Of a stretch of 64,000 bases of DNA, positions 5,862 through 33,490 are shown piece after piece. This DNA is from Deltaproteobacteria bacterium (GTDB lineage: Bacteria > Desulfobacterota > Syntrophia > Syntrophales > UBA2185). Each line of letters starts with the position of its first letter. Within the stretch, counting starts at the first letter, position 1. The stretch spans positions 94,737-158,736 of the forward strand of contig JAPLJS010000114.1 of the NCBI GenBank assembly GCA_026388545.1. The letters are read 5' to 3'. The translations under genes and the position numbers were made by a program. The notes beneath the pieces were generated by a model. That model was not told the DNA's origin, searched no databases, and saw only the letters and a list, made by a program, of their open reading frames with translations.

Positions 5862-5882
5862 TGGAAACCTGTTGCATCGAAT

Positions 5883-5914
5883 ATAAAAACCGTCAGAGGT
5901 TGTGCAAAGGTCTC
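5883..5914 (+). repeat. Solo IS5-family-like terminal repeat (right-end type)
   Basis: ATAAAAACCGTCAGAGGTTGTGCAAAGGTCTC matches 33322..33353 at 31 of 32 nt. It shares the TTGTGCAAAGGTC core with the right end of the intact IS at about 50645. Confidence 0.55.
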
Positions 5915-5966: not shown

Positions 5967-6348
5967 AAGCTCTCAAAACATTTTCTAATGCGACTTTGTG
6001 AGCGTTTAAGAGTCAGGCTTAATCCATATTATGAAGCCAAAATAAGATATTTAGAACAAAGGATCAAGTCTTTCCCCGATGGACTAAATAAGTGGGCATT
6101 ATATAAATAATACTAAATATTCGGCAGGTAAATATACAAATTACAGACTTTGTAATTCCGAACGAACATGAAGAATCTTCAAGATCCCTCCTTTCGGTCG
6201 GGACAAGGATTTCTCTTTTCACGCAAAATGACAAAAAAGAGAATTATGGCACAGGCTCTACGCGGGAGTGGCAGGAAGGACGAGTATTTCAGAGGTTTTT
6301 CAATACTTATGTTGACCTAAGGTGGATTTCATTCTGTAAGGAGAAACT

Positions 6349-7871: not shown

Positions 7872-10142
7872 TCACTTTGCCGACGGCTTGACACCCTCCT
7901 GTTTCTGCTGCTTTTCCTTGATTAGCTCTTCCTTCTTTATCCTACCTTTGCTTGATTCGGACATTTTGTCAACAAGCTCCGAGGATATGTCCTTTGCCTC
8001 TTTCTGGTTTTTAATCACGTGGGGTGTCAGCAGGATAATGATTTCCTGTCTTTTTGTTTCGTCTTCAGTATAACCGAATAGCCACCCGAGGATCGGTATT
8101 TTGGACAGGAGCGGTATACCTGATCTTGATTTTGACGTGTCTTCCCGAATGAGTCCGCCAATAACAATCGTCTGGTTATCCTGTACGACAAGATCCGTTG
8201 TCACATCGGTCTTGTTAAGGAGAATCTGAGATTCACCGGAAAGTGTGATAGTCTCGTAGTTTGAGATTTCCTGATAAAGCTCAAGAGAAACAAGGCCGCC
8301 CGCGTTAATCCGGGGTTTTACCTTCAAAATGATACCGATGTCCCGGTATTGAAAGTTTCGCTGGGGGGAAACACCGGGTGTGCCATAGGTTTCTGAGGTC
8401 ATGAGAGGGACCTGCTGACCGACCTGGATCTTTGCCTCTCTGTTGTCCGAGACGAGTATATGTGGAGCCGCCAATACCTTGGCTTTCGCCTCGGTGGCGA
8501 GGGCTGTGATGAGGGCTCTCACGGCGCCCGCAGCGTCGACGCCGATAAAAGTGAATCCCGTCATAGATAGTTTGTTCGGATCTACATTCAGGGCATTGGG
8601 ATTTAGTATAAACTTAGAGTCAAGATTCAACACATTACCTTTAAAAAGGGCAGAAATGCCGAAGCTGAGGTTGTCCGTGAGCGATACGGAAGCTACCATG
8701 CCCTCGATAACCACCTGCCTCGGAATGACATCGATCTCTTCGATAGTTTTTTTGATGGCGGCATAGTCTTCCGGTGTAGACAGAACTATGACGGTATTCG
8801 TGATTTCATCGGGGATGATTCTCGTGAAATCGGCAACGATGGCTTCTCCGCCGGTCGATATCGTTGAAACCTGTGGCTGTGAAGAAATCGCAGGGAAAGG
8901 AGATGGTGATGATTGAGCGGCTTGAGGCGCCGAGCCTGTTCTGGAAGGGGCGGAGGCCCTTTCCGGCGCAGACGTTTTACTGCCCAGGAATATCTGCTGT
9001 AAAAGCGAGGCGATATCTTTTGCCTTGCTGTTCTGGACTTGATAGACAAATACCTGAGGTTTTCTCTGCTTGAGTTTTTCGTTGTCAAAAATCTCGATAA
9101 GTTTGAGCATACGCTTTACATTGGCATCGGTATCCACGATAATGATCTGATTGCCCTTCGGCACGTCAATGAGGACGGCATTATTCGAAGAAAAGGGTGT
9201 AATAAGTTTGAGGACTTCTGATGACTGGACGTAGGTGATCGGTACCACCTGAAGCAAGGACTTTCCTGTTATCAGGATCTTCTCCGGATCCCGGCCGAAA
9301 CTGACGGGCGAAGGTTCCTTGGAGATGTCACTGATTGGGACAATCCTGTAAAGACCATTGTCCTCAACAATCCCAATGCCGTTGAGCCTCAGGATGACTT
9401 CCATCAAGGGCAGCACATTATCCATGGGAACGGGTGCAACGGCCCTGAAAGTAACTCTTCCTTTCACACGTGGATCAACCACGTAGTTGACCCTCAGCGC
9501 CTCGCCAAAGATAGTCTGGATGATCGTGTACACATCAGCATCATCGAAATTCAAGATGAACTGGCCTCTGCGGGGGACCGGGATAGCCGCGGGTTGCATC
9601 GCAGGAGGAGCAGGTTGCACCACAGGAACCGAAGGTTGCATCGCAGGAAAAGGAGGTTGCCCGGCGGGCGGCTGTCTCATGCCCGGAGGTAACAGTGGAC
9701 TCTGTTGCGGCTGCTGACCTGGTGGCATGGCGGTCTGCGGGGGCTTGCCCACAACGGGTTTGACCGGTTTAATTTGTTTCGGCGGCACTTCATTTTTCAA
9801 TGGCTCCGCAGGCATCTTTGCTGCAGGCTGCGGGAATGTTCCCTGCGGCGTCGAGATAGTTGTTGGCTGGGTCTTTGAAGGTTGTGTATCAGAAGATTTT
9901 GAAGGAATTAATTCCAGCGAAGGGGAAAACGGCTGTTGCCCTGGCTTCACATCGGTCTGATCTGTCTTTTGATCTTGCGATTGCGCCTGCGCCCAACAGC
10001 ATACTTCTGTGCCGGGTATAGGCACGAGTAAGCTTACACTACTTAAGGAAAGAATGAATGCAGTCTGCCAAATCAAGAAGGACTGTCGAGTAAACAAAAT
10101 ACCCCCAAAATTTCTTTCTGTCCAGAGTCTTAAAACCTGCAT
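7872..10142 (-). CDS. gspD: Type II secretion system secretin GspD with long Pro/Gln-rich N-terminal spacer
   Basis: N0/N1-like domains and a C-terminal secretin domain (PHILVSDNREAKIQVGQQVP...IPLLSKIPILGWLF...LLTPHVI). Starts 4 nt after the gspG stop. Confidence 0.9.
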   Translation of the reverse strand: MQVLRLWTERNFGGILFTRQSFLIWQTAFILSLSSVSLLVPIPGTEVCCWAQAQSQDQKTDQTDVKPGQQPFSPSLELIPSKSSDTQPSKTQPTTISTPQGTFPQPAAKMPAEPLKNEVPPKQIKPVKPVVGKPPQTAMPPGQQPQQSPLLPPGMRQPPAGQPPFPAMQPSVPVVQPAPPAMQPAAIPVPRRGQFILNFDDADVYTIIQTIFGEALRVNYVVDPRVKGRVTFRAVAPVPMDNVLPLMEVILRLNGIGIVEDNGLYRIVPISDISKEPSPVSFGRDPEKILITGKSLLQVVPITYVQSSEVLKLITPFSSNNAVLIDVPKGNQIIIVDTDANVKRMLKLIEIFDNEKLKQRKPQVFVYQVQNSKAKDIASLLQQIFLGSKTSAPERASAPSRTGSAPQAAQSSPSPFPAISSQPQVSTISTGGEAIVADFTRIIPDEITNTVIVLSTPEDYAAIKKTIEEIDVIPRQVVIEGMVASVSLTDNLSFGISALFKGNVLNLDSKFILNPNALNVDPNKLSMTGFTFIGVDAAGAVRALITALATEAKAKVLAAPHILVSDNREAKIQVGQQVPLMTSETYGTPGVSPQRNFQYRDIGIILKVKPRINAGGLVSLELYQEISNYETITLSGESQILLNKTDVTTDLVVQDNQTIVIGGLIREDTSKSRSGIPLLSKIPILGWLFGYTEDETKRQEIIILLTPHVIKNQKEAKDISSELVDKMSESSKGRIKKEELIKEKQQKQEGVKPSAK

Positions 10143-10146
10143 TTCA

Positions 10147-10578
10147 TTATTTCCAGCTTACTACGTCCTGGTCCTCTCCCTCGCCACCAAGAGCACCGTC
10201 CCTGCCATAAGAAAAGAGGTCATATTCCCCGTGTGTACCGGGACACTGGTAATTATAGGCTCTTCCCCACGGGTCATTGGGAAGTTCTTTCTTGAGATAA
10301 GGTCCATCCCATTTTTCGACACCGGGATTGACCGTGAGCGCGTTTAACCCCTCCTGTGTTGTAGGATACCTTCCCACATCAAGCCGAAACTGATCCAATG
10401 TCTGACCAAGAAGTTCTATCTGCGCTTTCGTTGCCGACTGCTTGCCTTTGCCGAGTTTCGGAAAAAGGCGGGGTCCAACGAGGGCGGCGATAAGACCGAT
10501 GATCACCATGACGACAAGAATTTCCACAAGCGTGAACCCTTTTTTGTTGGGCTTCCAGTGAATATGGCGCCGGATCAT
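10147..10578 (-). CDS. gspG: Type II secretion major pseudopilin GspG
   Basis: Prepilin motif KG|FTLVEILVV, then the GspG core (QIELLGQTLDQFRLDVGRYPTTQEGLNAL...DPWGRAYNY...LFSYGRDG). ATG at 10578 has an AGGAA RBS. Confidence 0.9.
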   Translation of the reverse strand: MIRRHIHWKPNKKGFTLVEILVVMVIIGLIAALVGPRLFPKLGKGKQSATKAQIELLGQTLDQFRLDVGRYPTTQEGLNALTVNPGVEKWDGPYLKKELPNDPWGRAYNYQCPGTHGEYDLFSYGRDGALGGEGEDQDVVSWK

Positions 10579-10745
10579 AGATATTCCTTGGGTGAATGAA
10601 AATTTCTTTGTCGGGTATTCGATGCAAGTCAAGCAGAGATTCTAATCTACCGCCCTATAAGAATATTTTTTTCTTTTATTTGCAACGAAAAATTTCAATA
10701 TGGATATATTGTATCATATAAATAGCTTATTTGTTTAGTAATATT

Positions 10746-10850
10746 TTACATTTTCCCAGCTTATATTTCCATAGGGAGTAACCTTGATCAACATAGCCAA
10801 ATGTCTTATTTATTCGTCAGGGAATGGATGATAAGTAACAGCGAAGAGAA
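10746..10850. promoter_or_regulatory. Conserved upstream element, copy A (upstream of gspG-gspD)
   Basis: About 100 nt, roughly three-quarters identical by eye to 29242..29345, in the same orientation. Shared blocks: TTACATTT, GCTT, ATAGGGA, CTTGATC, CAAAT, TCTTA, TCAGGGAATGG. Confidence 0.5.
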
Positions 10851-11055
10851 ATGTTGGTTCTATTCCGATCAGAGGGCGCCTGACTAAAAGGCCTTGCGCC
10901 TCTGCAGGCACATGAAGGGCTCACCTCCCCGTACTAGAAATCACGCCTGCCGCTATAAATTAAGGACTTTCGAAGGTATAAATCAGGTTATTCCTGATTG
11001 TGAATCGTTGCATAATTTTGTATTCATGATTACAAGGGCAAGGGAAGGAATAACC

Positions 11056-11295: not shown

Positions 11296-11621
11296 AAGAT
11301 CATGGAAGATGATGTCCTTTATGGCAGGCACTGCCATTCGTGCTTCAGATAAAATGGAAAATATCTTCAGTGATTGAGACCTTTCTTAATACTTGCAGAA
11401 CTCCACGACTTCCGGTTCCCCATGAAATACGCAATGTGCGAAAGATTCACTTTCTCTCAGGGCCTTACGCCTGATTGCCATAATCTATAAGGATTTTCAA
11501 AGTCATAAATAAAGATATTCCTGATGGTAAAGCACACCACCATTATGTTTAACTAAACAAGAAAGTTGAGAATGCTGACTTTTGAAGAAACGTACTTTAA
11601 AATGAAAGGGGAAAGTATGGT

Positions 11622-13769: not shown

Positions 13770-13792
13770 TCTTATCCGGGAGGTTCTCAAAA

Positions 13793-16967: not shown

Positions 16968-17621
16968 TCAATCATCGAGTGTAACCAATCCCTCTCGAAT
17001 GGCGTGTTTCGTAATCTCAGCGATGCTATACATATTCAGTTTCTCCATGATATTCCGTCGATGGGTTTCGACGGTCTTGATGCTCAGATATAAATGAGCG
17101 GCGATTTCCTTCGCTGTCATACCCTCCGCAATCAGTTGCAGGACTTCGCGTTCCCTCGGACTCAGTATGGAATGTGTTTTCAGGGAAGAAGTATGCACTT
17201 TGTTGAGATATCCCTTCACAACCACGTCTGCAATGCTTGGGCTCAGATAGGTATGTCCCGTTGTAACCTGACGAATGGCAGTGGCAAGCTCACTAAAGGC
17301 GCAATCCTTCAGCAGGTAGCCCGATGCGCCGGCTTCCAGCATACCGAGTACAAACCGGCGGTCCGAGTGCATGGAGAGACCAATCACCTTTACATTAGAC
17401 AATCCGGCCATGATTTTTCGAGTGGCATCTATCCCATTCATATCCGGCATGCTTACATCCATAACGATGACGTTGGGCGCCAGCTTCTCAGCCAGCTTGA
17501 CTGCTTTTCTGCCGTTTTCCGCTTCGGCAACAACCTCCATCCCTGCTTCTTTTTCTATCAGGGTGCGCAGGCCATCGCGAATAATCTTGTGATCATCGGC
17601 AAGAAGAACTCTGATGGTCAT
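16968..17621 (-). CDS. NarL/LuxR-family response regulator
   Basis: REC domain (VLLADDH...VMDVSMPDMNG) plus a LuxR-type HTH (LSPREREVLQLIAEGMTAKEIA). Overlaps the kinase stop by 4 nt. Confidence 0.9.
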   Translation of the reverse strand: MTIRVLLADDHKIIRDGLRTLIEKEAGMEVVAEAENGRKAVKLAEKLAPNVIVMDVSMPDMNGIDATRKIMAGLSNVKVIGLSMHSDRRFVLGMLEAGASGYLLKDCAFSELATAIRQVTTGHTYLSPSIADVVVKGYLNKVHTSSLKTHSILSPREREVLQLIAEGMTAKEIAAHLYLSIKTVETHRRNIMEKLNMYSIAEITKHAIREGLVTLDD

Positions 17622-20122
17622 TTTTTATACCTCCTTTTTTTCGGGTTTTTCCGTGGCGCCACGAGTGTGACACAGGTACCATATCCCCTGCCGCTTCTGA
17701 TCTCTACGAGGCCACCGATATGTTTAATGCGCTCCTTTATGCTGAGAAGACCAAAACCCCCGGTTTCTTTTGTTGTCTCATCGATAGTGGAGATATCAAA
17801 GCCAATCCCTTTATCTTTAACGGTAATCCGGATGTTTTTGCCTGCCGTCTGAAGAGTGAGATAAGCTGTGCTTGCCCTCGCATGTTTGACAACATTCAGG
17901 AGCAGTTCTCTCACGGCCCTATAGAGGAGCACCTGAACTTCTTCATCGATATCGCGCTTTTTAAGATCATCATTCAGGATAATCTGAAGACCGTAGTCGG
18001 CCTCCATCTGTTCGCTCAGCCAATCGATGGCTTCGGTGAATCCAAGCTCATAGAGAATGGAAGGACTGAGTTCTGTCATCAGCGACCTTGCCTGTTGAAT
18101 GGATTGGTTGACGAGATCCCCGATTTGATCCAGGATGATCGTGAATTCATGCTTTGAAGCCAGCTGCTTTAGGGATTCCAATTTGATTTTGGTCAGGGCC
18201 AGGGTTTGCCCGATATTGTCATGGAGATCAATAGAGATTTTCCGCCGTTCCCGCTCCTCCGTCATAATTAGTTCCGTCGTAAGCAATCCAAGCTGTTCAT
18301 TGATATCTTTGAGATTCTTTTCCGCATCCACCAGCTCGGAAATATCGACCATGGTTCCCTCAATCATTATCAGATCACCCTTATATTTACGGGCACTTGC
18401 ATTTAAGAGGACCCATATGCGTTTTCCATCCTTGTGCTGGAGAGAAAGCTTATAATTTCTGAGGATTTTCTTTTCCAGAAGATCATGGATATAATTTTTA
18501 AACTCGTGACCAGAAGAGAAAATATCTTTTATATCGAGGCCTGACGCATCTTCCCGCCTGTCGTAGCCCAGCATCCTCGCGTGGGCTTCGTTGCAGTCGA
18601 TACGCCGGGCATCTCTGGTGGACGGATTATAAATGGTGCGAAAACTTCCGGCTACGCTGTTTTGAAAGAACTGGTGGTATAGAGTCTCCGATTCATGAAT
18701 GGCCTCTTCCATTTTTATATGGTCTGTCATGTCGCGGGCGGCGGCTAAGATACCCTTGATGTCCCCTGACTCGTTTCGGTACAACGATGCATTGTAAAGC
18801 ACCTCCATCACCCTTCCCGAAACATTCCGGATAGCCAGCGGATAATCGCGGACAAAACCTTTTGAGAAAACCTCCTGGTATCCCTTCCGCGCCATGTCCG
18901 GTTCTGTGAAATAATCAGCAAAATCGCTACCGATCAATCGTTCACGGGACAGACCTGTTGCGTTCTCTGTCGCTTTGTTAACGTCCATGATCTTGCCGTC
19001 AGAACTGATCGTCACAAGGGGGTCGAGGCTAGCCTCGATGAGACTGCGGGCATAGAGGGCATCATCGAGACGCTTCCGTTCGGCCCGCTTGAGCTCCGTT
19101 ATATCCTGGTTGACGACTATGGCGCCTGTAACGTTGCCCTCTTCATTGATCAGAGGCACCGCTGAGTGAAGAATAAATTTGTGGGACCCGTCAAAACACT
19201 CAATTTCGATCTCTTCATTGAGGGAGATCTCCCCTTTCGTTACAGCCCTCGCTGCTCTCCACTCATGTGGTTTTATCAGCTTTCCCGTGTCAATCCACCA
19301 ACACTTATACTCGCCGTAGCGCTCGATATCCACATACCTGGCTCCGCCCCAGATTTCCTGACTTGCACGATTTCCCGAGATGATTTTCCCATTGTGGTCT
19401 ACTATCAAGACACCGACTGGCAGATTTTCCATTATTTTCTGCAGGAGTGTCTCGCTCTTTTTTAATGACCCCTCAATAGATATCCTTTCAGTGGTTTCTT
19501 GTTTGACCTTATCTTTTACCTTATCCAGCTCCCGTGTCCGCTCCTGCACTCGTTGATCCAGTTCTTCGTTTAGCTTGCGGATTTCGTCCTCAGCCCATTT
19601 GCGTTCGGTTATGTCATAATTGATCCCTGTCATGCGCAGGGGCCTGCCCTCTGAATCCCGAATAACCAATCCATGAGCCTTAAGAATCCTTATAGTGCCA
19701 TCCGGCCAAAGGATCCGAAACTCGGTATTGTATTCTTTCTCACCGCGCAATGCCTGCTTTGAAATCTCATGACTAGCGGCACGGTCATCAGGGTGGACTC
19801 CTTTGAGCCAGGCCTCATATGCGCCAGAAAAGTCTTCCTTGCTGATGCCATAGAGCCCATACATCCGATCATCCCAGATCAACTCATTCTTCTGGATGTC
19901 CCAGTCCCAGACTCCAATGTTAGCAGCATCGACAGCCAGGTTAAATCTTTCGTACATCCGGCTCAGCTCTTCGTTCTGCTTTTCGAGTTCAATCCGGTAA
20001 ACCTGCAATTCATGGACATGCTTGTGGATATCTTCATCAGGTTTCTTTTGTGATGTCTTCTTCCGGGAAATAAGCTTTGCTTCTGTCTTTCCGCGGAGTT
20101 CGTTAGATCGTCTTGTTTCCAT
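17618..20122 (-). CDS. Cytoplasmic multi-PAS sensor histidine kinase (HisKA_3/NarX-type)
   Basis: 834 aa with an N-terminal coiled coil, several PAS/PAC repeats, an H-box ISIDLHDNIGQTL and a HATPase_c domain. No TM segment seen. Starts 39 nt after the T2SS gspC-like gene. Confidence 0.85.
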   Translation of the reverse strand: METRRSNELRGKTEAKLISRKKTSQKKPDEDIHKHVHELQVYRIELEKQNEELSRMYERFNLAVDAANIGVWDWDIQKNELIWDDRMYGLYGISKEDFSGAYEAWLKGVHPDDRAASHEISKQALRGEKEYNTEFRILWPDGTIRILKAHGLVIRDSEGRPLRMTGINYDITERKWAEDEIRKLNEELDQRVQERTRELDKVKDKVKQETTERISIEGSLKKSETLLQKIMENLPVGVLIVDHNGKIISGNRASQEIWGGARYVDIERYGEYKCWWIDTGKLIKPHEWRAARAVTKGEISLNEEIEIECFDGSHKFILHSAVPLINEEGNVTGAIVVNQDITELKRAERKRLDDALYARSLIEASLDPLVTISSDGKIMDVNKATENATGLSRERLIGSDFADYFTEPDMARKGYQEVFSKGFVRDYPLAIRNVSGRVMEVLYNASLYRNESGDIKGILAAARDMTDHIKMEEAIHESETLYHQFFQNSVAGSFRTIYNPSTRDARRIDCNEAHARMLGYDRREDASGLDIKDIFSSGHEFKNYIHDLLEKKILRNYKLSLQHKDGKRIWVLLNASARKYKGDLIMIEGTMVDISELVDAEKNLKDINEQLGLLTTELIMTEERERRKISIDLHDNIGQTLALTKIKLESLKQLASKHEFTIILDQIGDLVNQSIQQARSLMTELSPSILYELGFTEAIDWLSEQMEADYGLQIILNDDLKKRDIDEEVQVLLYRAVRELLLNVVKHARASTAYLTLQTAGKNIRITVKDKGIGFDISTIDETTKETGGFGLLSIKERIKHIGGLVEIRSGRGYGTCVTLVAPRKNPKKRRYKK

Positions 20123-20160: not shown

Positions 20161-20910
20161 TTAAGGTTGTTGCATTCGCAGTGCCTCTCTCCGCATTTGT
20201 TGTCCCTCTTTGCTCCTCATTAACAGCGCCTCTCTCCTCGATGTCGGCGTTCTACCGGGAACTACAACCCCCGGTGCAGGAGAAGTTGCCGCCTGTGGAA
20301 GGGATGGCGCCGCCGGAAGAGATGAAGGGACAATAGCAGGCTGAGAGCCACCTGACGGCAATGTGGAAGTTGCCTGCGGAGCGGGGGCTGCGCCGGCTTT
20401 TCTTTTTTCCCCATCGTTCAGCATCACCACGATTTTATCCTCCCCTTTGACCAGGACAATGCGGTTTGCCTCTACCTCTCGGAGGATGTAACCGTTGAGG
20501 TTATCCCCTTTTTTAAGGGCGATTTGCCTTTCCCCTCTCCCCGGTGTTGAGTAAGGCGCTTTCTTGTTTTCGATGAACGCGATACTCATATCGTCCATGA
20601 TCAGAGTTCCGTGAAGGATGACTTCCGGTCTCGGTATTGCTTTTTCGTCTTTCTTCTCCGGCGGAATCTTTCTTTCAGGGTGAAAAAGATTTTGTTCGCT
20701 GATTACGGCATAATCGACAGGAGAATAATTCTGCGGCAGTGCGGGTTTTTCTCCGGACCGCTCAACTGTCTCCTTCGCTGCAGGGAGGGACATCTGAATA
20801 TCCGGATTCAGAAAAGGGATCACGGTAAAATACGCGACTGTTGCAACGGCAACTGTCAGCAGGCCGTTCAGAACATTCATACTTTGAAAAAGATATTTCA
20901 TCCCGGCCAT
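20161..20910 (-). CDS. T2SS-associated inner-membrane protein, GspC/PilP-like
   Basis: One N-terminal TM helix. LHGTLIMDDMSIAFIENKK...GYILREVEANRIVLVKGEDKIVV resembles an HR/PilP-like beta domain. Ala/Pro-rich tail. Assigned by position in the operon. Confidence 0.45.
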   Translation of the reverse strand: MAGMKYLFQSMNVLNGLLTVAVATVAYFTVIPFLNPDIQMSLPAAKETVERSGEKPALPQNYSPVDYAVISEQNLFHPERKIPPEKKDEKAIPRPEVILHGTLIMDDMSIAFIENKKAPYSTPGRGERQIALKKGDNLNGYILREVEANRIVLVKGEDKIVVMLNDGEKRKAGAAPAPQATSTLPSGGSQPAIVPSSLPAAPSLPQAATSPAPGVVVPGRTPTSRREALLMRSKEGQQMRREALRMQQP

Positions 20911-20911
20911 G

Positions 20912-21466
20912 TCATTTCCCTCCTGTCAGTCCCGACACTTTCAGTTTCACTATCAAATCCCTCGGTTCCCTGAAATTCCTTATTCTTGTGTCCAGCTCCC
21001 GAACAACAAGATAAGGGGTTTGTGTCTCAATGGCGTACAGGGTGTCGCCGAGGGCCCTCGTATCGGGAAGCACCGCATCAATCGTGACGGTAATCATTTT
21101 GAACTTTCCGGTATCCTCCGGTTTTTCTGCCCTCTCGCTGGAGATGGTTCCTCCCCTCGCGGTGATCATAACCTTGATGGTATTCTGAAGGGCAGCGGCT
21201 GCGAGGGAGGGGGTCTGCCCCTCGATCATTTTGGAATTTTCAGCCTTTCTGGTCTCCCTCAGAGCGTTCAATTTCTCTTCGATTCGGGGTTTATCGGCAA
21301 TCAGAGTTATATATTTCTCAAGGGTCTTCGACTTGACAGACCTTGTGTCTTCCATGGCGGTCAATTCCGTCTGGGCTCTCAAATAACCATATTGGTATAT
21401 GACAGCACCGAGGAGGATGATCATGAGAGGGATGGCGACAACAAGAATCTTACTCTTTTTTTTCAT
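20912..21466 (-). CDS. GspM/PilO-like T2SS assembly protein
   Basis: Short cytoplasmic N-terminus, one TM helix and a periplasmic coiled-coil/ferredoxin-like region. Starts at MKKKSKILVV. Sits between the L-like and C-like genes. Confidence 0.5.
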   Translation of the reverse strand: MKKKSKILVVAIPLMIILLGAVIYQYGYLRAQTELTAMEDTRSVKSKTLEKYITLIADKPRIEEKLNALRETRKAENSKMIEGQTPSLAAAALQNTIKVMITARGGTISSERAEKPEDTGKFKMITVTIDAVLPDTRALGDTLYAIETQTPYLVVRELDTRIRNFREPRDLIVKLKVSGLTGGK

Positions 21467-22988
21467 TCCTTGCCTTTTCCTCCGGTGAAGTTTCAATTTC
21501 CATTTTAATGATGAACCGGTCTGCATTTATTCTGGTATCTCTGAAGGTAGGAGATGAAAACTCTGCTTTTTTGAAATACCCGGAAGCCTCCAGCTTCGGC
21601 AGTATTTCTGTTGCTGAGGCAGAATAACCTTCTATTTCTACGGTCGAATCGGTAATTCTGAGTCTGGAAAGCCAGGTGTTCTTCGGCAAAACCCTGGTCA
21701 TTTCCTTGAGCAGGTTCAGCACCATGGGCCGGGATGACTTGAAAGAATTGATCGTGTATATCTCTTTTTCTACCCCTTCCAAATCCTTTTTCAGGGCCTC
21801 GGCCTTTTTAACCTCGTCTTTGCGAGCCATAATTTCCCGGTCGATGGCTTCGATCTTCTTTTCCTCGATCTGAAGAGGAGATGTGAGCCAGAACACGCAC
21901 AATGCGGCAAGAATGGAAAGTAAGACAATCGTTGCAGCGAAGGGGGTCTTTTGAGGTTTATGAATACCTTTGTCAAGGAGGTTCATTCCCTCTGCGTTGT
22001 ACCACAGGGACTCCAAAACTCCCCCTATGGCAGTATAGGGAACCTCCGTCACGTTTCCCCTATTCAATAATTGAAGCTTGAGATCCATCTCCCCGATGAA
22101 CCTGACCGGTACGCTTATCCTTTCCTGAAGAATGGTCTTCCATTTTCCGGACACTTGATTATTGACGAATACCTCAGGTACCTCCCCTTTTTCTTTCACC
22201 ATTCCGACAAGTGAATTGATCTCTTCAATGAGAGAATTGATTATTGATTGCTCGTCCCCTGGCTCAAAATTTCCCGTGAAAGAGGTCTTCAGTTTACCGT
22301 TGTGGATGAGCCCGCCCTCGTATCCATTGGAATGGATTTCCACAAAGATGGTATTCCCTCTCCTATGAACGTAATGGCTGAGCGTGCCTATTGCTGAGAG
22401 GCTGACAACAACCCGACTGACGGTAATACCTTTTTCCCTGAGGGCCTCCACATAGGGCTGAAGTACATCGGTCTTCATCGCCGCGAGCATGATCTGAAGG
22501 CGGTTTTCATCCTCTGCGATAATCCGGAAGTCATAGAAAGCCCTTTCGGAGGAGAGTGGGGTCAGCCTGTCCAGTTCAAAGGAAATGACATCGGAGAGGT
22601 TGTCTTTGACGGTGAGAGGCAACTCGGCAGTCTTCATAATGGCCCAGGCCTTGGGGATGATGAGCAGGACTTGAGCCCTGGCAGCCTTGAGATCGTTTAC
22701 CGCCAGCGCCACAGCAGAGGAGAGGCTTTCCGGTGTCGGATACTTTCCTTCCTCAAAGAAGTATCTCCTGATTCCCCGGATTTTCATTCGGGAAAATAAC
22801 CGGGAACCGTACGCAACAGAAATGCCGCCTCTTTCAATCAGAACAGACAGACATTGCCTGGGCGCAATACGGTCATCGGCGATACTGAAGGAGAGTACCT
22901 TCCACAAGGGCTCGCCCCATTTGGACATTTTTGCCACTGTGTCCGTAATAAAAAATGTGGTTTTCCTCATCACTTCAGCGGTCTTCAT
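21450..22988 (-). CDS. GspL-like protein (PilM-like actin-fold domain fused to PilN-like TM/periplasmic domain)
   Basis: 512 aa with a central TM helix (FAATIVLLSILAALCVFWL). The ATG at 22988 overlaps the gspK stop (ATGA). Confidence 0.6.
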   Translation of the reverse strand: MKTAEVMRKTTFFITDTVAKMSKWGEPLWKVLSFSIADDRIAPRQCLSVLIERGGISVAYGSRLFSRMKIRGIRRYFFEEGKYPTPESLSSAVALAVNDLKAARAQVLLIIPKAWAIMKTAELPLTVKDNLSDVISFELDRLTPLSSERAFYDFRIIAEDENRLQIMLAAMKTDVLQPYVEALREKGITVSRVVVSLSAIGTLSHYVHRRGNTIFVEIHSNGYEGGLIHNGKLKTSFTGNFEPGDEQSIINSLIEEINSLVGMVKEKGEVPEVFVNNQVSGKWKTILQERISVPVRFIGEMDLKLQLLNRGNVTEVPYTAIGGVLESLWYNAEGMNLLDKGIHKPQKTPFAATIVLLSILAALCVFWLTSPLQIEEKKIEAIDREIMARKDEVKKAEALKKDLEGVEKEIYTINSFKSSRPMVLNLLKEMTRVLPKNTWLSRLRITDSTVEIEGYSASATEILPKLEASGYFKKAEFSSPTFRDTRINADRFIIKMEIETSPEEKARNEKKE

Positions 22989-23953
22989 TGTACAATTTCC
23001 ACGGGGCACTTGTAGTAAACATATCTATACTGCTGCAGACTGTCGAAGGTTATCGTCGCGAGGATGGAATAACCCTTTTTCTGATCACCCTTATAACCGG
23101 TAGACTCCACGGTGTATGCCCCCGATGTGCTCCCCGGAGCGAAGCTCATAGTGGGCGCCGTCTGGGAGTAACTGCTGCCGATTATATCCTTGATATCCTC
23201 ACCCCCCCGGATCTCTGATGATGCCCTTAATTCCATGATCCGGTCTGCCATTTCGGCAGTCATCCCCGGAAGGGCCGCCAGGATTTCTTTTGGCGCCGCA
23301 TTGATATTTATCTGGCTCATAGTAATGTAGAGTGTCAGGAAATGAATAATCCCTTTCTTCTTATCCGTACCATAGAGAATTTCAGGGGTGACGCCCTTGA
23401 CAAGAATCAGCATCTCCAGGGTCTCGAAGGGGGCATTTCTTGCCTTGTAAGGGTTCGGGAGCGACAGGTAATAATCACTTTCGGCCCCGTGGAGGCGGTG
23501 CAGGTCATCGGCATCCTTCCAGTCCAGGATGGAATCGACGATGATATCTGCGTTTTCAGGCGATACACCCTGGTTGATCAGGAGATTTTTCACAATGATG
23601 CCGGAGGTATCGGTCAGGCTGTTCAGCGATATTTTTCCCGATTCATCGATGACTCGCACAATGGCGCCGCTTCCTCCCATGTCAACGGTATACGCAGTGC
23701 TGTCGAGCTTCCACACCTCTTTCCCCACCAGCGTCACCGTCTGATTCTGGTTGACGGACCGGTAAATAATCTCCATTATGCCCCTTTCAATCCCGGCTTC
23801 AGCTAAAAACTTTTTCTCCATGCCCTCTTTAAAAGCCAGAGTACCATAAGTTTCGGCCCTTGTCATCACGGAGAAGGAAAATACCGTCACCATGAGGATC
23901 GTCATGACCCACAATACAATAAGAAGGGCGATGCCTTTCTGAGAGTTTTTCAT
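22985..23953 (-). CDS. gspK: Type II secretion minor pseudopilin GspK
   Basis: N-terminus KGIALLIVLWVMTILMV, a GspK-like body and a helix-hairpin-helix-like region (INAAPKEILAALPGMT). Confidence 0.8.
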   Translation of the reverse strand: MKNSQKGIALLIVLWVMTILMVTVFSFSVMTRAETYGTLAFKEGMEKKFLAEAGIERGIMEIIYRSVNQNQTVTLVGKEVWKLDSTAYTVDMGGSGAIVRVIDESGKISLNSLTDTSGIIVKNLLINQGVSPENADIIVDSILDWKDADDLHRLHGAESDYYLSLPNPYKARNAPFETLEMLILVKGVTPEILYGTDKKKGIIHFLTLYITMSQININAAPKEILAALPGMTAEMADRIMELRASSEIRGGEDIKDIIGSSYSQTAPTMSFAPGSTSGAYTVESTGYKGDQKKGYSILATITFDSLQQYRYVYYKCPVEIVQ

Positions 23954-23989
23954 GGTATTCTTGTTCCGCCTTCTTTCATTTTCATTTCG

Positions 23990-24110
23990 TTATTTACTAC
24001 AAAAATAGATTCCACGTATCCCTCCCTTTAGAAAGTAGATTCCATGTATTCCCCCCTTTTCTAAAGGTTGATCCCCAGTTCCCCCCTTTTTTAAAGGGGG
24101 GTCAGGGGGG
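23990..24110. repeat. Degenerate tandem CCCC(C)TTT..AAAGG(GGG) units flanking the DUF559 gene (3' side)
   Basis: Three units of about 30 nt (AGATTCCACGTATCCCTCCCTTTAGAAAGT and variants), ending in CCCCCCTTTTTTAAAGGGGGGTCAGGGGGG. Confidence 0.6.
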
Positions 24111-24459
24111 ATTTTAAATGTTCATGGATTCTTTCAACTACTCCATCAATGTTTTTGAGCACGTCTATGTCGGAAAAGCGCAGCACAGTAAATCCACGCA
24201 TCTTAAGATATCGATCCCTTGCTCGATCTTTCTTCATCCCATCATTCTCATAATGTTGCCCACCATCTATCTCCACGATGAGTTTTCCCTTTGGGCAGTA
24301 AAAGTCCACGATGTAATGACCGATATTTTTCTGCCGGTAGAATTGTAAATCGCCTATCTGTTTCCTCCTGATCTTCGACCAGATAAGCTGTTCGGCATCG
24401 GTCATGTTGCTTCTTAAATTCCGGGCGAATGGTTTGAGTTTCTTGTTGAAGGGCAGCAT
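24091..24459 (-). CDS. DUF559 / Vsr-like endonuclease-fold protein
   Basis: NLRSNMTDAEQLIWSKIRRKQ...FYRQKNIGHYIVDFYCPKGKLIVEIDGGQH...DRARDRYLKMRGFTVLRF is the classic DUF559 pattern. Confidence 0.8.
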   Translation of the reverse strand: MLPFNKKLKPFARNLRSNMTDAEQLIWSKIRRKQIGDLQFYRQKNIGHYIVDFYCPKGKLIVEIDGGQHYENDGMKKDRARDRYLKMRGFTVLRFSDIDVLKNIDGVVERIHEHLKSPLTPL

Positions 24460-24464
24460 TAAAA

Positions 24465-24580
24465 AATCCCCCTCAATCCCCCTTTACGAAAGGGGGACTT
24501 GATGTTATTCCCCTTTTAAAAAAGGGGGACTTGGCATTTCAAGAAGTTTATTCCCCCTTTTGCAAAGGGGGACCTATCAG
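24465..24580. repeat. CCCCCTTT-N-AAAGGGGG hairpin cluster flanking the DUF559 gene (5' side)
   Basis: Three hairpins: ATCCCCCTTTACGAAAGGGGGAC, TTCCCCTTTTAAAAAAGGGGGAC and TTCCCCCTTTTGCAAAGGGGGAC. Confidence 0.65.
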
Positions 24581-24668
24581 GCATTCATCCTGGTTCCCCG
24601 CCTTCGTGGCGCCCCACGGGGCATGTAGTTTCCTGACATCAAGGCGGGGCCGGGATATTCTGCATACC

Positions 24669-25346
24669 TTAGAGACCTGCCGGAATGGGAACATCACTTT
24701 TTACTGTCATCATTTCGCCGCCAACCCTTACAGGGAATACAAGAAAAAGTTTTTTTGTACCTTCCACAATATGTACCTTTACTTTTTCAGGAATAAATGA
24801 CTCTCCGGACAGCATTTCCAGCCACTTTCCCTGTTCCTCTGCCCGGTCCTTGTGAAAATATTCGAATGATATTCCCGTCGCTTCAATGAGCCGGATGTCA
24901 CGACGTCCTTCGATACCCGGAACCTGCTCACCGGCATAGAGCACCTCTTTCCCTGTGTTGTCGGCCTTTACTGTGTAATCAACAATGACGTAACCCCTCT
25001 GCCCGCCCCAGATGGAGTAATTCGTCGAAAAGCGGAGGGTCTTCCCGTCGCCACTGAAATAGTATCTCTTTTTTCCATCCTCTTCATAGGTAAGAGGAAC
25101 CTGCGATTGTATTTGAGCGTCCATGAAAGAAAGGACTGTTCTGAACCTCTCCTGTGCATCCATCTTTCTTTCTCCGGATGCCACTGACCGGGAGCCCAGC
25201 CTCATGGCGCCCATTGTGATGGCTACAATCACAACGAGCAGGGTAATGGAGATAAGGAGCTCAAGGAGTGTAAAGCCCCCGTCGGAGACGGCGAATCGCC
25301 GTTGCCCCGCTCTCTCTGCTACATATATATGTGCCGGGTTATTCAT
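24669..25346 (-). CDS. Minor pseudopilin, GspJ-like
   Basis: Prepilin N-methylation motif G|FTLLELLISITLLVV. Size and operon position fit GspJ. Confidence 0.65.
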   Translation of the reverse strand: MNNPAHIYVAERAGQRRFAVSDGGFTLLELLISITLLVVIVAITMGAMRLGSRSVASGERKMDAQERFRTVLSFMDAQIQSQVPLTYEEDGKKRYYFSGDGKTLRFSTNYSIWGGQRGYVIVDYTVKADNTGKEVLYAGEQVPGIEGRRDIRLIEATGISFEYFHKDRAEEQGKWLEMLSGESFIPEKVKVHIVEGTKKLFLVFPVRVGGEMMTVKSDVPIPAGL

Positions 25347-25365
25347 TTTTTACTTCTTCTTCCCT

Positions 25366-25408
25366 TCACTCGAATCCTCGACCCCTTGACCCCTTGAACC
25401 CTTACAAC
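25366..25408. repeat. TCACTCGAATCCTYGA + TTGACCCC/TTGAACCC short-repeat element
   Basis: A second copy is at about 26358..26385. An inverted relative (GGGTCAAGGTTCAAGGGGCAAGGGGTC) is at 58548..58575. Confidence 0.5.
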
Positions 25409-25414
25409 AGTCCT

Positions 25415-25861
25415 CTACACAATCGATGGGGAACTGCTTTCCGCAGGTTTTATCTTGTCGATCATTTTTACCGTCTTCAATTGGATGTTTCTTTCCTTCC
25501 TTCCCTCATTCCATCGGACGACGAGCGTGACCTCCATCATCTTGACCGGCAGATTGTCCGTTCTTTCCTTCAGCACCTCACCTATGGAAACTTCTATGCG
25601 GTAACCATCATCCGTAATCTCTCTCCATGCTTTCTCCGTCAACGAAGGATCCGCCAGGATTTCCCTGATCTTAGCATCAGACCAGGCTACGGCCGAGGAC
25701 ATATTGCCGGAGATGGAAACGGATTGTAAATTAGCAGAATAGAGCTGTATGATCAGCGATAGAGCAATTGACAATATGGCGAGGGCTACGAGGACTTCCA
25801 GAAGGGTGAAACCGCTGTCTCTGTCAATTCCCTTTGCCCTTATGTAATTTACATTTTGCAT
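25415..25861 (-). CDS. Minor pseudopilin, GspI-like
   Basis: G|FTLLEVLVALAILSIAL prepilin motif. About 130-aa mature protein. Confidence 0.65.
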   Translation of the reverse strand: MQNVNYIRAKGIDRDSGFTLLEVLVALAILSIALSLIIQLYSANLQSVSISGNMSSAVAWSDAKIREILADPSLTEKAWREITDDGYRIEVSIGEVLKERTDNLPVKMMEVTLVVRWNEGRKERNIQLKTVKMIDKIKPAESSSPSIV

Positions 25862-25881
25862 TTTTACTTTTACATTTTGCC

Positions 25882-26328
25882 TTATTTTATTACCACCGCC
25901 CCTGAAATCGGGTCTGTTTCTATCCTCATAACTTTTCTGCCGCTGGACAGGATAATTGTTCCGCCTTCCACACCACCGGTAGGATGGAACACGATAGGGT
26001 ATTTCCCCCGGTACATCTCGCCGGACACCGGGTCAAGTACCGTAATCTTCATTTCCGGCGGGAAACTTTTTGTAATCAGGCCTTCGATGCCGTACACCCG
26101 GCTGTCTAAATCAATGACTACGGTCTTTTTTTCCATGTTCATGCGGGCCAGAGACCGGGCGTGGCGGATAACTCCAGACATTTCCCTTCCTGCCGCACTG
26201 AACCTGGCCGAAGGGAGAAAACCGGCAAAAAAGATCGTGGACATGCCCAGTATCAGGGTCATGAGAAAAATTACAATGATGACCTCGAGAAGCGTGAAAC
26301 CGTTTTTCTTCCTGATTTTCTTACGCAT
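25882..26328 (-). CDS. Minor pseudopilin, GspH/FimT-like
   Basis: MRKKIRKKNG|FTLLEVIIVIFLM. The start at 26328 is preferred because the longer track ORF translates a REP element. Confidence 0.65.
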   Translation of the reverse strand: MRKKIRKKNGFTLLEVIIVIFLMTLILGMSTIFFAGFLPSARFSAAGREMSGVIRHARSLARMNMEKKTVVIDLDSRVYGIEGLITKSFPPEMKITVLDPVSGEMYRGKYPIVFHPTGGVEGGTIILSSGRKVMRIETDPISGAVVIK

Positions 26329-26394
26329 TAACCTTGCATCCTTGAACTTTCTGCACATCTCACTCGAATCCTTGAATCCCACTTACCCTCTTTC

Positions 26395-27591
26395 TCAGAA
26401 CGGGATCTCGGTGATACTGAATATGGCCAGAAGCACCGAAATAACGATAAAGCCGATGACCAACCCCATAATGAGTATCAAGACTGGTTCCAGGAAGCCC
26501 ATGAAACGCTTGATGGCTTGCCTGAGGCTTTTTTCATAGGTAACGGCGATCCGAATCAGCATCTGTTCAAGCTGCCCTGTCTCCTCGCCGACTTTGATCA
26601 TAGAGAGGGCCAGGGGGGGGAAGATGCCTGCCTGAGAGAGAGGACCGGAAATTCCCTTTCCTTCTTTTGCTCCCTTGGATACGGTTTCGATTGCCGAGGC
26701 AATGACCTGATTGCTGATGACTTCCTTGGCATTATTCAGGGCTTGCAGGAGAGAGACACCGCTGGCCAGGAGCGTTCCCAGGGTTCTGCAGAAACGCGCC
26801 GTTTCCAATTTTATGATAACATCACCCATAAGTCGAAGCTTTATGGCGTCCCATTTGTATTTCCCCCCGTCAGTACTGATGTAATTTTTGAACGCGAGCC
26901 ATGCGGCAACGATGAGAATGAGAAGAATCCAGCCGTATGACTTCAACGCGTTACTTACCACAAGAAGGATCTGCGTCGACAAAGGGAGGGAACTTCCAAG
27001 CTCGGCAAAAATTACGGAAAACCTGGGCAAGACGAAAGTGAGGAGAAGAATAATGGAAAGCCCGCCGGTGATGAAGAGTATTGTGGGATAGATCATGGCG
27101 GAAAACACATGATCTTTCAATTCTTTCGATGATTCGAGGAATTCATTGAGGCGCTCCAGGATCACATCAAGAAATCCCCCGGCCTCACCGGCCCTGACCA
27201 TATTGACATAAAGCCGGGAAAATTCCTCCGGATGCTTCTGGAGTGCTTCAGAAAAAGAGCCCCCTTCCCGGATGGACTTAAGGAGGGATTGAACAACCTC
27301 TTTCATCTTCCGGTGCTCCGATATTTCCGCCAGAATATTGAGGCATCTGTCGAGGGGGAGCCCCGCCCCCAATAGAGCGGAGAGCTCGGCCGTAAAAGTC
27401 ACCAGGTCCAATCTTCTGGTTTTCAGTCTTAGTTTTGCTTTGAGGCCACCCTCACGGGGCGCCCTGACCTCCAGGGGGATCACCCCCGTATTCTTGAGCC
27501 TTTCGATGGCAGATTTTTCATCAGCGGCTTCGATTACGCCCTCCGCAACGATTCCTTCCATAGTAGTTGAACGGTATGCAAAGATGGGCAT
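26395..27591 (-). CDS. gspF: Type II secretion inner-membrane platform protein GspF
   Basis: 398 aa with a duplicated GspF/PilC domain and three TM helices. The start abuts the gspE stop. Confidence 0.92.
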   Translation of the reverse strand: MPIFAYRSTTMEGIVAEGVIEAADEKSAIERLKNTGVIPLEVRAPREGGLKAKLRLKTRRLDLVTFTAELSALLGAGLPLDRCLNILAEISEHRKMKEVVQSLLKSIREGGSFSEALQKHPEEFSRLYVNMVRAGEAGGFLDVILERLNEFLESSKELKDHVFSAMIYPTILFITGGLSIILLLTFVLPRFSVIFAELGSSLPLSTQILLVVSNALKSYGWILLILIVAAWLAFKNYISTDGGKYKWDAIKLRLMGDVIIKLETARFCRTLGTLLASGVSLLQALNNAKEVISNQVIASAIETVSKGAKEGKGISGPLSQAGIFPPLALSMIKVGEETGQLEQMLIRIAVTYEKSLRQAIKRFMGFLEPVLILIMGLVIGFIVISVLLAIFSITEIPF

Positions 27592-29115
27592 TTACGCCTC
27601 CTGTGTCACCCGAAATACTTCGCTTAAGGTTGTCAGGCCATTCCTGACCTTTGCAGCGCCGTCCTCAAGAAGGGTCTTCATACCGAGCTTTCTCGCCATA
27701 TTTCTGAGCTCGTTTGCATCCGTGTGCCGGAGTATCAGCCTGCGGATGTCGTCATCAACGACAAGCAGTTCGAAGACACCTGTTCTGCCTAAGTAGCCTG
27801 TGAAAGTACATTTTTCACACCCTCTCCCCCGGTAGAGATCAACTTCAGCGCCGATATCAAAAGGGGCCAGTTCTTCCAGGCTAATCACTGAAGTATCTTT
27901 TTCCTTGCAGTACGGACATATGATCCTGACCAGCCTCTGTGCCAGGATTCCCCTGATAGTGGAAGACAGGAGAAAACTCTCCACACCAATATCGAGGAGT
28001 CTTGTAATGGCGCTTGGGGCATCATTCGTATGAAGTGTCGAAAAGACCAGGTGCCCTGTGAGGGCCGACTGCACGGCAATCTCCGCTGTTTCCAGGTCCC
28101 GGATCTCACCGATCATAATCACGTCGGGATCCTGACGGACAATATGGCGAAGGGTGTTCGCAAAACTGAGGCCGATCTGGGGTTTCACCTGAATCTGGTT
28201 CACGCCTTTGAGCTGATACTCAACAGGGTCCTCGACCGTGATGATTTTTCTATCCGGCAAATTGATCTTGTCCAGGGCGCCGTAAAGGGTAGTGGTTTTC
28301 CCGCTCCCCGTGGGACCGGTGACGAGGATGATACCGTTAGGTTTATTGATGAGTTTTTGGAACGGCAAGAGGATATCTTCGGAGAATCCCAGTTGATCCA
28401 GATCAATGACGATCCCTTCCTTGTCGAGGATCCTCATGACCACACTTTCACCGTAAATGATGGGGATACTCGATACGCGGAGGTCGATTTCCTTCTCGCC
28501 CACTTTAAGCCGGATGCGGCCGTCCTGGGGAAGCCTCCTCTCGGCAATGTTCAGTTTCGCCATGATCTTGATCCGTGAAACGAGAGCCGCCTGAAGTTTT
28601 TTGGCGAAGGTCTCGATATTGTGGAGAACGCCGTCAATACGGTAGCGAACTTTTAAACCATCTTCGAAGGGTTCTATGTGGATGTCGCTGGCTCTGCTTT
28701 CTACTGCCCTGCTGATAAGCACATTGACGAGCCTGATGATGGGAGCTTCCGACGCCAGATCTTTCAGATGCCCGACATCCTCCCCTTCTTCACTGGCGAA
28801 CCCGAGTCCATTCTCGTCGATATTCTCGATGATCTTATTGATATCCTGTGTCTCCTGGCTATAGTAACGGGAAATGTAATCGTCGATCATCTTCCCGTCC
28901 CCGCTGTATACCTGTATATCGGCAGACAGGGCGACCCGAAGGGCATCGACAACTTCCCTGTTTCCCGGATCGGCCATGAGAACCTTGATCTGGTTATTTT
29001 TCATCTCCAGGGGGATGATCCGGTTTTCACGGATGAATCTTGAAGACACACCATCGAGCACAATGGGAACCTTGGGGAGATCTTCGATTTTGATGGCCCG
29101 TGCAGCCTGACTCAT
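27592..29115 (-). CDS. gspE: Type II secretion ATPase GspE
   Basis: Walker A GPTGSGKTT, Asp box, Walker B DPDVIMIGEIRD, His box TGHLVFSTLHTN, and a tetracysteine motif CPYC...CEKC. Confidence 0.95.
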   Translation of the reverse strand: MSQAARAIKIEDLPKVPIVLDGVSSRFIRENRIIPLEMKNNQIKVLMADPGNREVVDALRVALSADIQVYSGDGKMIDDYISRYYSQETQDINKIIENIDENGLGFASEEGEDVGHLKDLASEAPIIRLVNVLISRAVESRASDIHIEPFEDGLKVRYRIDGVLHNIETFAKKLQAALVSRIKIMAKLNIAERRLPQDGRIRLKVGEKEIDLRVSSIPIIYGESVVMRILDKEGIVIDLDQLGFSEDILLPFQKLINKPNGIILVTGPTGSGKTTTLYGALDKINLPDRKIITVEDPVEYQLKGVNQIQVKPQIGLSFANTLRHIVRQDPDVIMIGEIRDLETAEIAVQSALTGHLVFSTLHTNDAPSAITRLLDIGVESFLLSSTIRGILAQRLVRIICPYCKEKDTSVISLEELAPFDIGAEVDLYRGRGCEKCTFTGYLGRTGVFELLVVDDDIRRLILRHTDANELRNMARKLGMKTLLEDGAAKVRNGLTTLSEVFRVTQEA

Positions 29116-29241
29116 AGTGTATTCCTCATAGCTGTTCCTGAACTAAAATCTAAGAAAATCTTCACATAATGTCATGGAGAGCAACTGACCCCGTACCTCA
29201 TTATGCCTCAGGAATATTGACACCCTCCTGCTTATCAAATT

Positions 29242-29345
29242 GTTACATTTCCCCGGCTTGTTTTCTATAGGGAATAAACTTGATCCAAACGGGCAAATCT
29301 CTTAATTATCAATCAGGGAATGGCTGAAAAACATTCCCGAAGAGG
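29242..29345. promoter_or_regulatory. Conserved upstream element, copy B (upstream of gspE operon)
   Basis: Paralogous to 10746..10850 in the same orientation. It begins 127 nt from the gspE ATG. Confidence 0.5.
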
Positions 29346-33353: not shown

Positions 33354-33490
33354 TAAGTGAACCCCTTGCCCGGCTAATCCCTTTCCTTATTTCAATTTAA
33401 GATATTTTTGCAGTAAAGATCATGTTTCTCCTGATTGTAATGATGTCATTAATAAGGGAAAATGCGGCAAAACAATACAGGAGGTGTGAG

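Follow-up and report, generated by a model that had tools for sequence, protein, structure and literature searches.

The operators of LuxR-family activators, the lux-box and the tra-box, are palindromes of 18-20 bp centred near -42.5, and the activators that read them are acyl-homoserine-lactone receptors, not phosphorylated response regulators. At the Bordetella fha and ptx promoters, BvgA occupies an array that extends from about -100 down to -35, and the differing affinities of its sites, some high and some low, determine the firing order of virulence and secretion genes. To our knowledge, the regulation of T2SS genes is poorly known beyond a few proteobacterial pathogens and unknown in syntrophic anaerobes. 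In Escherichia coli, NarL acts from a single site at yeaR, at -43.5, and from two sites at ogt, at -44.5 and -77.5, both of which are required (PMC10853779). The Pul/Oxp T2SS of Geobacter secretes the multicopper oxidase OmpB (PMC3543383, citing Mehta et al. 2006); that work concerns secretion function, and we came across no account of a cis-element common to its genes, or of a two-component regulator dedicated to the system.

Here we describe a family of control regions, referred to as boxes, from a 64,000-nucleotide stretch of DNA (the window) that carries a T2SS cluster, and from related loci. The boxes resemble NarL promoters in several respects: their candidate reader is a NarL/FixJ regulator with a GerE-type HTH, their dyads lie at or just upstream of a weak -35, and the division into short and full boxes mirrors the division of NarL promoters into one-site and two-site classes. 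They differ from NarL promoters in half-site (AATCAGG versus TACYYMT), in spacing (7-5-7 or 7-6-7 versus 7-2-7), in the distance from distal to proximal site (about 45 bp versus 33 bp at ogt), and in the genes served, which are those of secretion and a copper oxidase versus those of nitrate respiration. The TACYYMT 7-2-7 arrangement did not occur in the boxes, where we saw just a loose resemblance to it (TACTCCC in copy A), and the box, different in both half-site and spacing, is not a NarL box.

With the lux-box the family shares a palindrome of about 19 bp that overlaps the -35 of a poor promoter and, in its candidate reader, a dimer with a GerE-type HTH, but a distal second site with a fixed 70-bp geometry is present here and is not known from lux-box and tra-box promoters. 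The likeness to BvgA lies in the NarL/FixJ family of the candidate regulator, in the array of sites, and in a C-rich heptad (TTTCCTA for BvgA, TTyCCTG here); organism, motif and regulon differ, and our comparisons gave no sign of cooperative spreading along the DNA. As in the Geobacter Pul/Oxp-OmpB case, T2SS genes are linked to a large multicopper oxidase of the laccase family, and the lineage is a related deltaproteobacterial one. We found no published description of this motif or regulon.

The box and its copies in the window

The preliminary description of this DNA had reported two similar blocks of about 100 nt, collinear, in the same orientation and roughly three-quarters identical by eye, upstream of two T2SS operons. 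That pair is real. The best local alignment between the two intergenic regions joins 10743-10848 to 29239-29344, both read in one orientation, and scores 83, about 24 standard deviations above the scores of 300 shuffles (20.2 +/- 2.6, maximum 36), and the exact alignment that had been proposed gives copies A and B a global identity of 84 in 110 columns (76%; 82% over ungapped columns, with 8 gap columns). As a separate check, a BLAST search of the window against itself matched 29243-29330 to 10746-10834 (78.7% over 89 nt, E = 1e-12), and comparison of the two regions confirmed that the sequence flanking copies A and B is unrelated on both sides, as had been stated.

Other parts of that account needed revision. 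The blocks are not just two, since the window holds four full and two short boxes (Table 1), and although the two copies do share an orientation as described, the working strand is the reverse complement of the one that had been written, which for copies A and B is the minus strand. The idea that the T2SS operons are the common denominator stands insofar as boxes precede both gspG-gspD and the gspE operon, but with at least four full and two short copies in the window the regulon is wider than these two operons. The CDGSH gene, which had been taken for an unrelated bystander, has a related short box of its own. The 100-base blocks are copies of a DNA control region, composed of putative regulator sites and a likely promoter, that stands before each unit of a set of type II secretion and copper-oxidase genes in one group of syntrophic bacteria.

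Table 1. Boxes, dyads, candidate promoters and associated genes in the window.
Feature	Position	Strand	Evidence and context
Full box, copy A (70-column core)	10765..10834	-	Upstream of gspG-gspD; nhmmer E = 9e-20, gapless alignment with 26 relatives
Copy A dyads	distal 10815-10833, proximal 10770-10789	-	Similarity to copy B spans 10743-10848
Candidate sigma70-type promoter of gspG-gspD	10743..10771	-	-35 TGGAAA (10766-10771), 17-nt spacer, -10 TAAAAT (10743-10748)
Copy A predicted start	near 10736	-	Leader of about 158 nt to gspG ATG at 10578; predicted from the hexamers
Full box, copy B	29261..29330	-	Upstream of the gspE-gspF...HK-RR operon; nhmmer E = 1.2e-19
Copy B candidate promoter	-35 TAGAAA 29262-29267, -10 AACAAT 29239-29244	-	8/12, below tool threshold
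Full box, copy C, more diverged	6017..6086	+	Upstream of fkbP (6349-7047) and slt (7191-7868); E = 1.8e-12; orthologous copy in L063
Full box, copy D, most diverged	33372..33441	+	Precedes the multicopper oxidase gene (33491-36826) by about 50 nt
Copy D proximal dyad, GATCATG-N5-CCTGATT	33418-33436	+	Motif scan
Copy D candidate promoter	-35 TTGTAA 33435-33440, -10 GAAAAT 33458-33463	+	Below tool threshold
Short box	10964..11006	+	Upstream of the CDGSH gene; E = 2.7e-12
Perfect palindrome, AATCAGG-TTATT-CCTGATT	10981-10999	+	Inside the CDGSH short box; sole 0-mismatch match in 64 kb
Short box, degenerate left arm	11491..11533	+	Upstream of the 11622-15729 operon; E = 1.4e-9
Operon behind second short box	11622-15729	+	Proteins of unknown function, FtsX/MacB permease, ABC ATPase
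NarL/FixJ-type response regulator (REC + GerE HTH)	16968..17621	-	Pfam; final gene of the gspE operon; candidate box binder
Multi-PAS HisKA_3 histidine kinase	17618..20122	-	Pfam; the regulator's partner
gspG (10147-10578) and gspD (7872-10142)	7872..10578	-	Pfam; pseudopilin and secretin operon, behind copy A
gspE (27592-29115), gspF (26395-27591) and downstream pseudopilin/assembly genes	20161..29115	-	Pfam; operon behind copy B, running on into HK and RR
CDGSH gene	11056-11295	+	Pfam

The cluster in the window is rearranged and broken up by toxin-antitoxin and DUF4143 insertions, and each of its units still keeps its box. Copy D, which precedes a gene for a multicopper oxidase of 1111 amino acids, gave a profile match that on its own reaches E = 0.035; it is backed by a homologous copy in a relative (L056), where it stands before that genome's Cu-oxidase gene.

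Twenty-seven copies align over a 70-column core without an indel, the lone MAFFT gap in the alignment (in L056_gspG) being equally readable as substitutions. The information profile of the core is ...TcATCC.TTcCCTGA...a.AAAtaAGa.ATTT....a...ggatc.agt.tTcccCC.AT.Ga.a., and read toward the gene it consists of a distal dyad (tATCAtC-N5-CCTGAtA), an A/T block (AAG..ATTT), a proximal dyad, and a promoter-like part. The distal dyad occupies columns 2-20, with a near-perfect right arm (CCTGAt) and a weaker left arm (ATCA). The strongest conservation in the core falls on this distal block, its 'spacer' included (ATCC.TT.CCTGA), an appearance that is inflated because a pattern fixing the distal block had brought in roughly half of the copies in the alignment. 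In full boxes the proximal dyad is a degenerate form of AATCAGG-N5/6-CCTGATT, quite degenerate in the gspE and gspG copies, and the arm nearer the promoter shares bases with a weak hexamer of -35 type, T(T/A/G)G(T/A)AA (TAGAAA, TGGAAA or TTGTAA). The centres of the two dyads are about 45 bp apart and are not placed on the same helical face.

Short boxes correspond to the downstream two-thirds of the full box only. Their proximal dyad is AATCAGG-N5-CCTGATT, and a TTCGAA palindrome lies about 18.5 bp upstream of this main palindrome. Allowing up to 3 mismatches, the main palindrome has 11 sites in the window, where 4.2 +/- 2.0 are expected, and none of 100 shuffles reached 11. Near the CDGSH gene we also noted TTGTGAATCGTTGCATAA at 10997-11014 (+), which overlaps the -35 region of that gene and by eye is loosely like a Rex operator (TTGTGAA-N4-TTCACAA).

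Distribution in relatives and metagenomes

The nearest homologues of the window's GspE, at up to 93% identity, are annotated as Syntrophaceae, Syntrophales or Smithella, which points to an uncultured syntroph as the origin of the window. Orthologous loci were gathered through exact-protein look-ups and searched with a profile made from copies A and B, and later with an improved profile. In two relatives whose GspE is 87% identical (L055 and L056), the two-copy profile matched upstream of gspE and upstream of gspG, and a third copy appeared upstream of a lytic transglycosylase gene (slt). Since the matches were always on the strand opposite to the orientation first described, the box is co-oriented with its downstream gene. 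It was also found in the more distant L076/L077, with a GspE identity of 77%, in L078 and in L080. Across genomes with GspE 77-87% identical, position and orientation are kept and the flanks are unrelated.

Gene order varies among these loci. The L055 and L056 clusters are compact, running from slt through gspE to gspN and then to a convergent gspD-gspG pair; the window and L063 have tandem or split arrangements, and in L076 the kinase and regulator genes lie inside the cluster. The preliminary description had proposed an operator or promoter that the T2SS operons share, for example for the NarL-type regulator encoded in one of them. The comparisons support this, with an element that is conserved and co-oriented before gspE, gspG and slt despite the differing gene orders, that contains dyad-symmetric sites, and that co-occurs with orthologues of that regulator. 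Profile search did not find the full box in the T2SS loci L057 and L072-L075.

Relatives also extend the list of genes behind the box. Short boxes precede tatA (L056, L058, L059), multicopper oxidase genes (L076, L081) and a MamX-like gene (L078), and a short box or palindrome lies upstream of the regulator gene itself in L081 and L078. A full-type box stands before Cus-like efflux genes in L081. Several clade T2SS clusters (L057, L072/L073, L081/L082) are flanked by copper and oxidative-stress genes, the set comprising a Cus-like MFP with a YHS domain and an RND pump, a CopA-like P-type ATPase, AhpC/redoxin, DsbD, and GspA/GspB-like genes. This flanking set suggests a copper or oxygen theme for the regulon.

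A strict pattern, drawn from the conserved part of the box and fixing the distal block, was scanned over 241 million metagenome records and matched 14 contigs. In at least 9 of these the motif neighbours gspG, gspE or slt, with its orientation to the gene unchanged. The remaining matches lie before a NiFe-hydrogenase small subunit gene, a DUF2284/ADH/AOR operon, hsp20-cydA, and a gene for a small coiled-coil protein. The copy at the DUF2284/ADH/AOR operon (L067), which is not a T2SS locus, is directly 3' of a GerE-HTH gene whose HTH is 65-69% identical to that of the cluster regulator. Because some metagenome copies precede non-T2SS genes, the box family is strongly but not exclusively tied to T2SS. 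There was no box match in 50 unrelated loci from other phyla that had been found by their PAS kinase paralogues; the kinase-based genome scan behind them yielded such paralogues alone and no orthologous locus.

The preliminary description had named a generic REP or MITE as the outcome that would undo its proposal, and the metagenome scan speaks to this directly, with few matches in a very large collection and most of those at T2SS genes. A dispersed repeat of this kind, or a duplication remnant with no specific regulatory role, would sit well with the several unrelated short repeat families in the window and with the few motif matches at unrelated genes. We regard it as exceedingly improbable, given just six copies in 64 kb, all of them upstream of and co-oriented with functionally linked genes, the conservation of position and orientation across genomes, and the scarcity of matches in the metagenome records and their absence from the 50 unrelated loci. 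By eye, the ends of the block are not inverted copies of each other.

RNA structure and promoter signals

The hairpins on the plus strand that the preliminary description had noted beside both copies lie outside the conserved core, upstream of it in the functional orientation, and differ in every relative. The structured RNA that it had considered conceivable is likewise unsupported. At the gathering threshold Rfam returned nothing at the boxes, the only match being a group II intron elsewhere in the window, and at E values up to 10 both regions gave noise only. RNAalifold predicted 0 consensus pairs in either sense or antisense, the mean folding z-scores were -0.2 and -0.6, with energies no better than those of shuffles, and by eye the hairpin registers around TCA..TGA were not maintained across copies. 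Across 12 proximal dyads we counted 17 arm mismatches against the half-site consensus, none of them compensated in the other arm; the pattern fits two independent protein half-sites and not a hairpin.

A block that is transcribed and acts as RNA, whether as a riboswitch, a leader, a protein-binding 5' UTR or a plus-strand small RNA, could still appeal to the long leaders (about 115-300 nt) between block and start codons, to the gspE copy in relatives that lies directly after slt, where co-transcription is possible, to a palindrome able to fold as a 7-bp hairpin, and to the promoter-like TTGATC-N17-TAtTTA of copies A and B in the orientation first described. Against it stand, besides the folding results, the uncompensated mismatches and the unconserved hairpins, the mere 50 nt or so between the oxidase copy and its ATG, plus-strand hexamers that neither the slt copies nor the L056 gspE copy retain, and the lack of a common target for such transcripts. 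The RNA reading is largely refuted, and we consider it very unlikely; judged from the sequences, the box is an element that acts at the level of DNA.

Within this DNA element, the -35-like hexamer occupies columns 64-69, and in most copies a -10-like hexamer follows 16-18 nt on. The copy A hexamers, TGGAAA-17-TAAAAT, agree with the consensus at 9/12 positions and are alone in exceeding the promoter-scan threshold, copies B, C and D falling below it, and across the 27 copies the -10 signal at a spacing of 16-18 nt forms a weak peak in AT-rich sequence. The best geometric support for the predicted promoter comes from the oxidase copy, with about 50 nt from core to ATG, where the stretch after TTGTAA-17-GAAAAT is just long enough to fit a start site and an AGGAGG ribosome-binding site ahead of the ATG at 33491. 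Besides the start near 10736 for copy A, starts are predicted near 29232 (-), 33470 (+) and 11030 (+). If the candidate promoter is right, the proximal dyad would be centred near -43 and the distal dyad near -88; in class II-type activator-dependent sigma70 promoters the activator site is centred near -41.5 to -44.5.

Other promoter classes and features were considered. A sigma54 promoter of the GG-N10-GC type (TGGCAC-N5-TTGCA, at least 8/11 consensus) was found in 0/27 copies between -30 and +140 nt of the core start, and by Pfam the cluster regulator is without a sigma54-activation domain. We rejected a plus-strand sigma70 promoter, TTGATC-N17-TAWTTA, with a divergent start at TCAGGGAATGG, the hexamers of which are not kept in the slt copies or in the L055 and L056 gspE copies; the divergent plus-strand transcript has no common downstream target. 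For ECF-like, sigma28, sigma32, sigmaH and Bacteroidetes-type promoters, and for an IHF site, spacing or key bases fail by eye. A small ORF from an ATGG in the block was set aside, since the frame differs between copies, reading MDDK* in copy A and running for 22 aa in copy B, and so was a coding reading of the sense strand, as TGATAGATAAATAAG has stops in all three frames.

The candidate reader and the proposed circuit

Where a T2SS cluster carries the box, the regulators encoded next to it are orthologous to one another, with 71-81% identity between those of the window, L055 and L076, and many homologues of 72-94% identity occur in Syntrophales. All 3 of the orthologue loci that were fetched (L078/L079, L080 and L081/L082) place the regulator gene within a cluster of gspE-gspF-gspH, multicopper oxidase, FKBP and Cus-like genes. 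The box occurs in 6/6 loci with the regulator versus 0/3 T2SS loci without it (Fisher p = 0.012; 9 loci, 10-kb flanks), the negatives having been taken from the T2SS loci L057 and L072-L075. In the window and in L076, the kinase and regulator genes belong to the gspE operon that the box would drive. The kinase does not contain the NreB-like oxygen-sensing CxxC..CxxC motif, and we found no second regulator gene consistently linked to the box.

Orthologous linkage, the 6/6 versus 0/3 co-occurrence, the palindrome upstream of its own gene, membership in the gspE operon, and the similar HTH gene next to the L067 copy all lead us to regard the NarL/FixJ response regulator of the cluster as the leading candidate reader of the boxes. 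Conservation, fixed geometry, dyad symmetry, co-orientation, regulon membership and regulator co-occurrence are all observed features of the family. On balance it seems rather likely, from sequence comparison, that the box is a DNA cis-regulatory module, an operator array with an activator-dependent promoter, that is read by the cluster regulator before each unit of the regulon. Weighing against it are promoter hexamers short of consensus, dyads that depart from the 7-2-7 NarL arrangement and lie off a common helical face, the strong conservation of the distal block, and family members outside the T2SS theme. The identity of the binding protein, the direction of regulation and the point where transcription starts are inferred.

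The regulon so defined would include the T2SS machine (the gspE operon and gspG-gspD), the assembly helpers slt and fkbP, and a presumed cargo, the large multicopper oxidase. Its short-box members would be tatA, the CDGSH gene, the ABC/FtsX operon and the regulator's own gene, with the Cus-like efflux genes also belonging to it. The adjacent PAS kinase would phosphorylate the regulator, dimers of which, seated on the proximal site near -43, would bring in RNA polymerase, in the manner of NarL at yeaR. At the T2SS structural operons, because their proximal sites are degenerate, a second dimer would be required at the distal site near -88, as with NarL at ogt. With the kinase and regulator genes themselves part of the gspE operon, the circuit would reinforce its own expression by positive autoregulation.

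The same operator and promoter might instead be read, wholly or at the distal site, by another factor, such as a global redox, oxygen or metal regulator, in which case the cluster response regulator would be a mere passenger or co-regulator. Consistent with such a factor, the distal block (TCATCC.TTyCCTGA...AA..A...ATTT) is the best conserved part of the box and recurs in metagenome contigs before the NiFe hydrogenase, before the AOR/ADH operon and before hsp20-cydA, several genes of the clusters hint at copper and oxidative stress (Cus-like RND, CopA-like ATPase, AhpC, DsbD), and the short boxes carry their TTCGAA palindrome upstream of the main one. These points are countered by the linkage data, in which the regulator orthologue is present in 6/6 loci and no second regulator gene is consistently linked, by the palindrome before the regulator gene itself, by the similar HTH gene that abuts the L067 copy, and by the fact that the non-T2SS matches were chosen by a pattern imposing the distal block. 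We judge a different reader unlikely.

Keeping the cluster regulator as the candidate reader, a broader and decidedly tentative proposal is that one pair of PAS kinase and NarL-type regulator runs a 'make, export, secrete' programme with two-tier promoters in uncultured syntrophic Deltaproteobacteria. The programme might cover tatA, folding by FKBP, a cell-wall gap made by SLT, the T2SS machine, the oxidase cargo, Cus-like efflux and the iron-sulfur CDGSH protein. The first tier would rest on one perfect palindrome, for cargo, Tat and regulator, and the second on two degenerate sites with a fixed 45-bp geometry, for the machine, so that affinity would decide which promoters fire first, as with Bvg. 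Promoters of hydrogenase, AOR and cytochrome bd genes also have the distal block, through which the regulon of these strict anaerobes might in addition be coupled to a global response to oxygen or redox state.

The box provides a concrete and testable operator sequence together with a candidate regulator. The regulon list names a probable T2SS cargo, the giant multicopper oxidase, and its likely helpers (Tat, FKBP, SLT and Cus), and the box could be used as a search motif for predicting secreted substrates in metagenome-assembled genomes. A secretion cluster that has been split and rearranged would by means of its boxes stay one regulatory unit.

The window contains further repeated sequences. 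A 54-nt block, 91% identical between 5861-5914 and 33300-33353, lies immediately upstream of the fkbP and oxidase boxes; it is readable as a tiny ORF (METxxIxxKNRQRLCKGL) and is missing from L063 and L056 at the corresponding places. Three copies of a 72-nt repeat, the length being approximate, lie at 29807-29881, 30408-30481 and 31396-31468 (89-93% identical), inside the toxin-antitoxin/AbiEii/DUF4143 insertion between gspE and the multicopper oxidase gene. A self-complementary family of about 60 nt (29682-29744, 61426-61484 and 62322-62379, 80-100% identical), which may be REP-like or a terminator, has one of its palindromic copies just beyond the gspE upstream region. Short dispersed repeats of 82-97% identity pair 59734-59796 with 61482-61543 and 37023-37108 with 49329-49413, and link 24464-24500, 59741-59777 and 61489-61525. 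Near the 3' end of the multicopper oxidase gene, at 36403-36798, there are internal tandem repeats that are 80-85% identical with a period of about 147 nt. The group II intron match, to domain D1-D4 (RF02003), is at 51937-52072 (+) with 109.5 bits and E = 1.4e-23.
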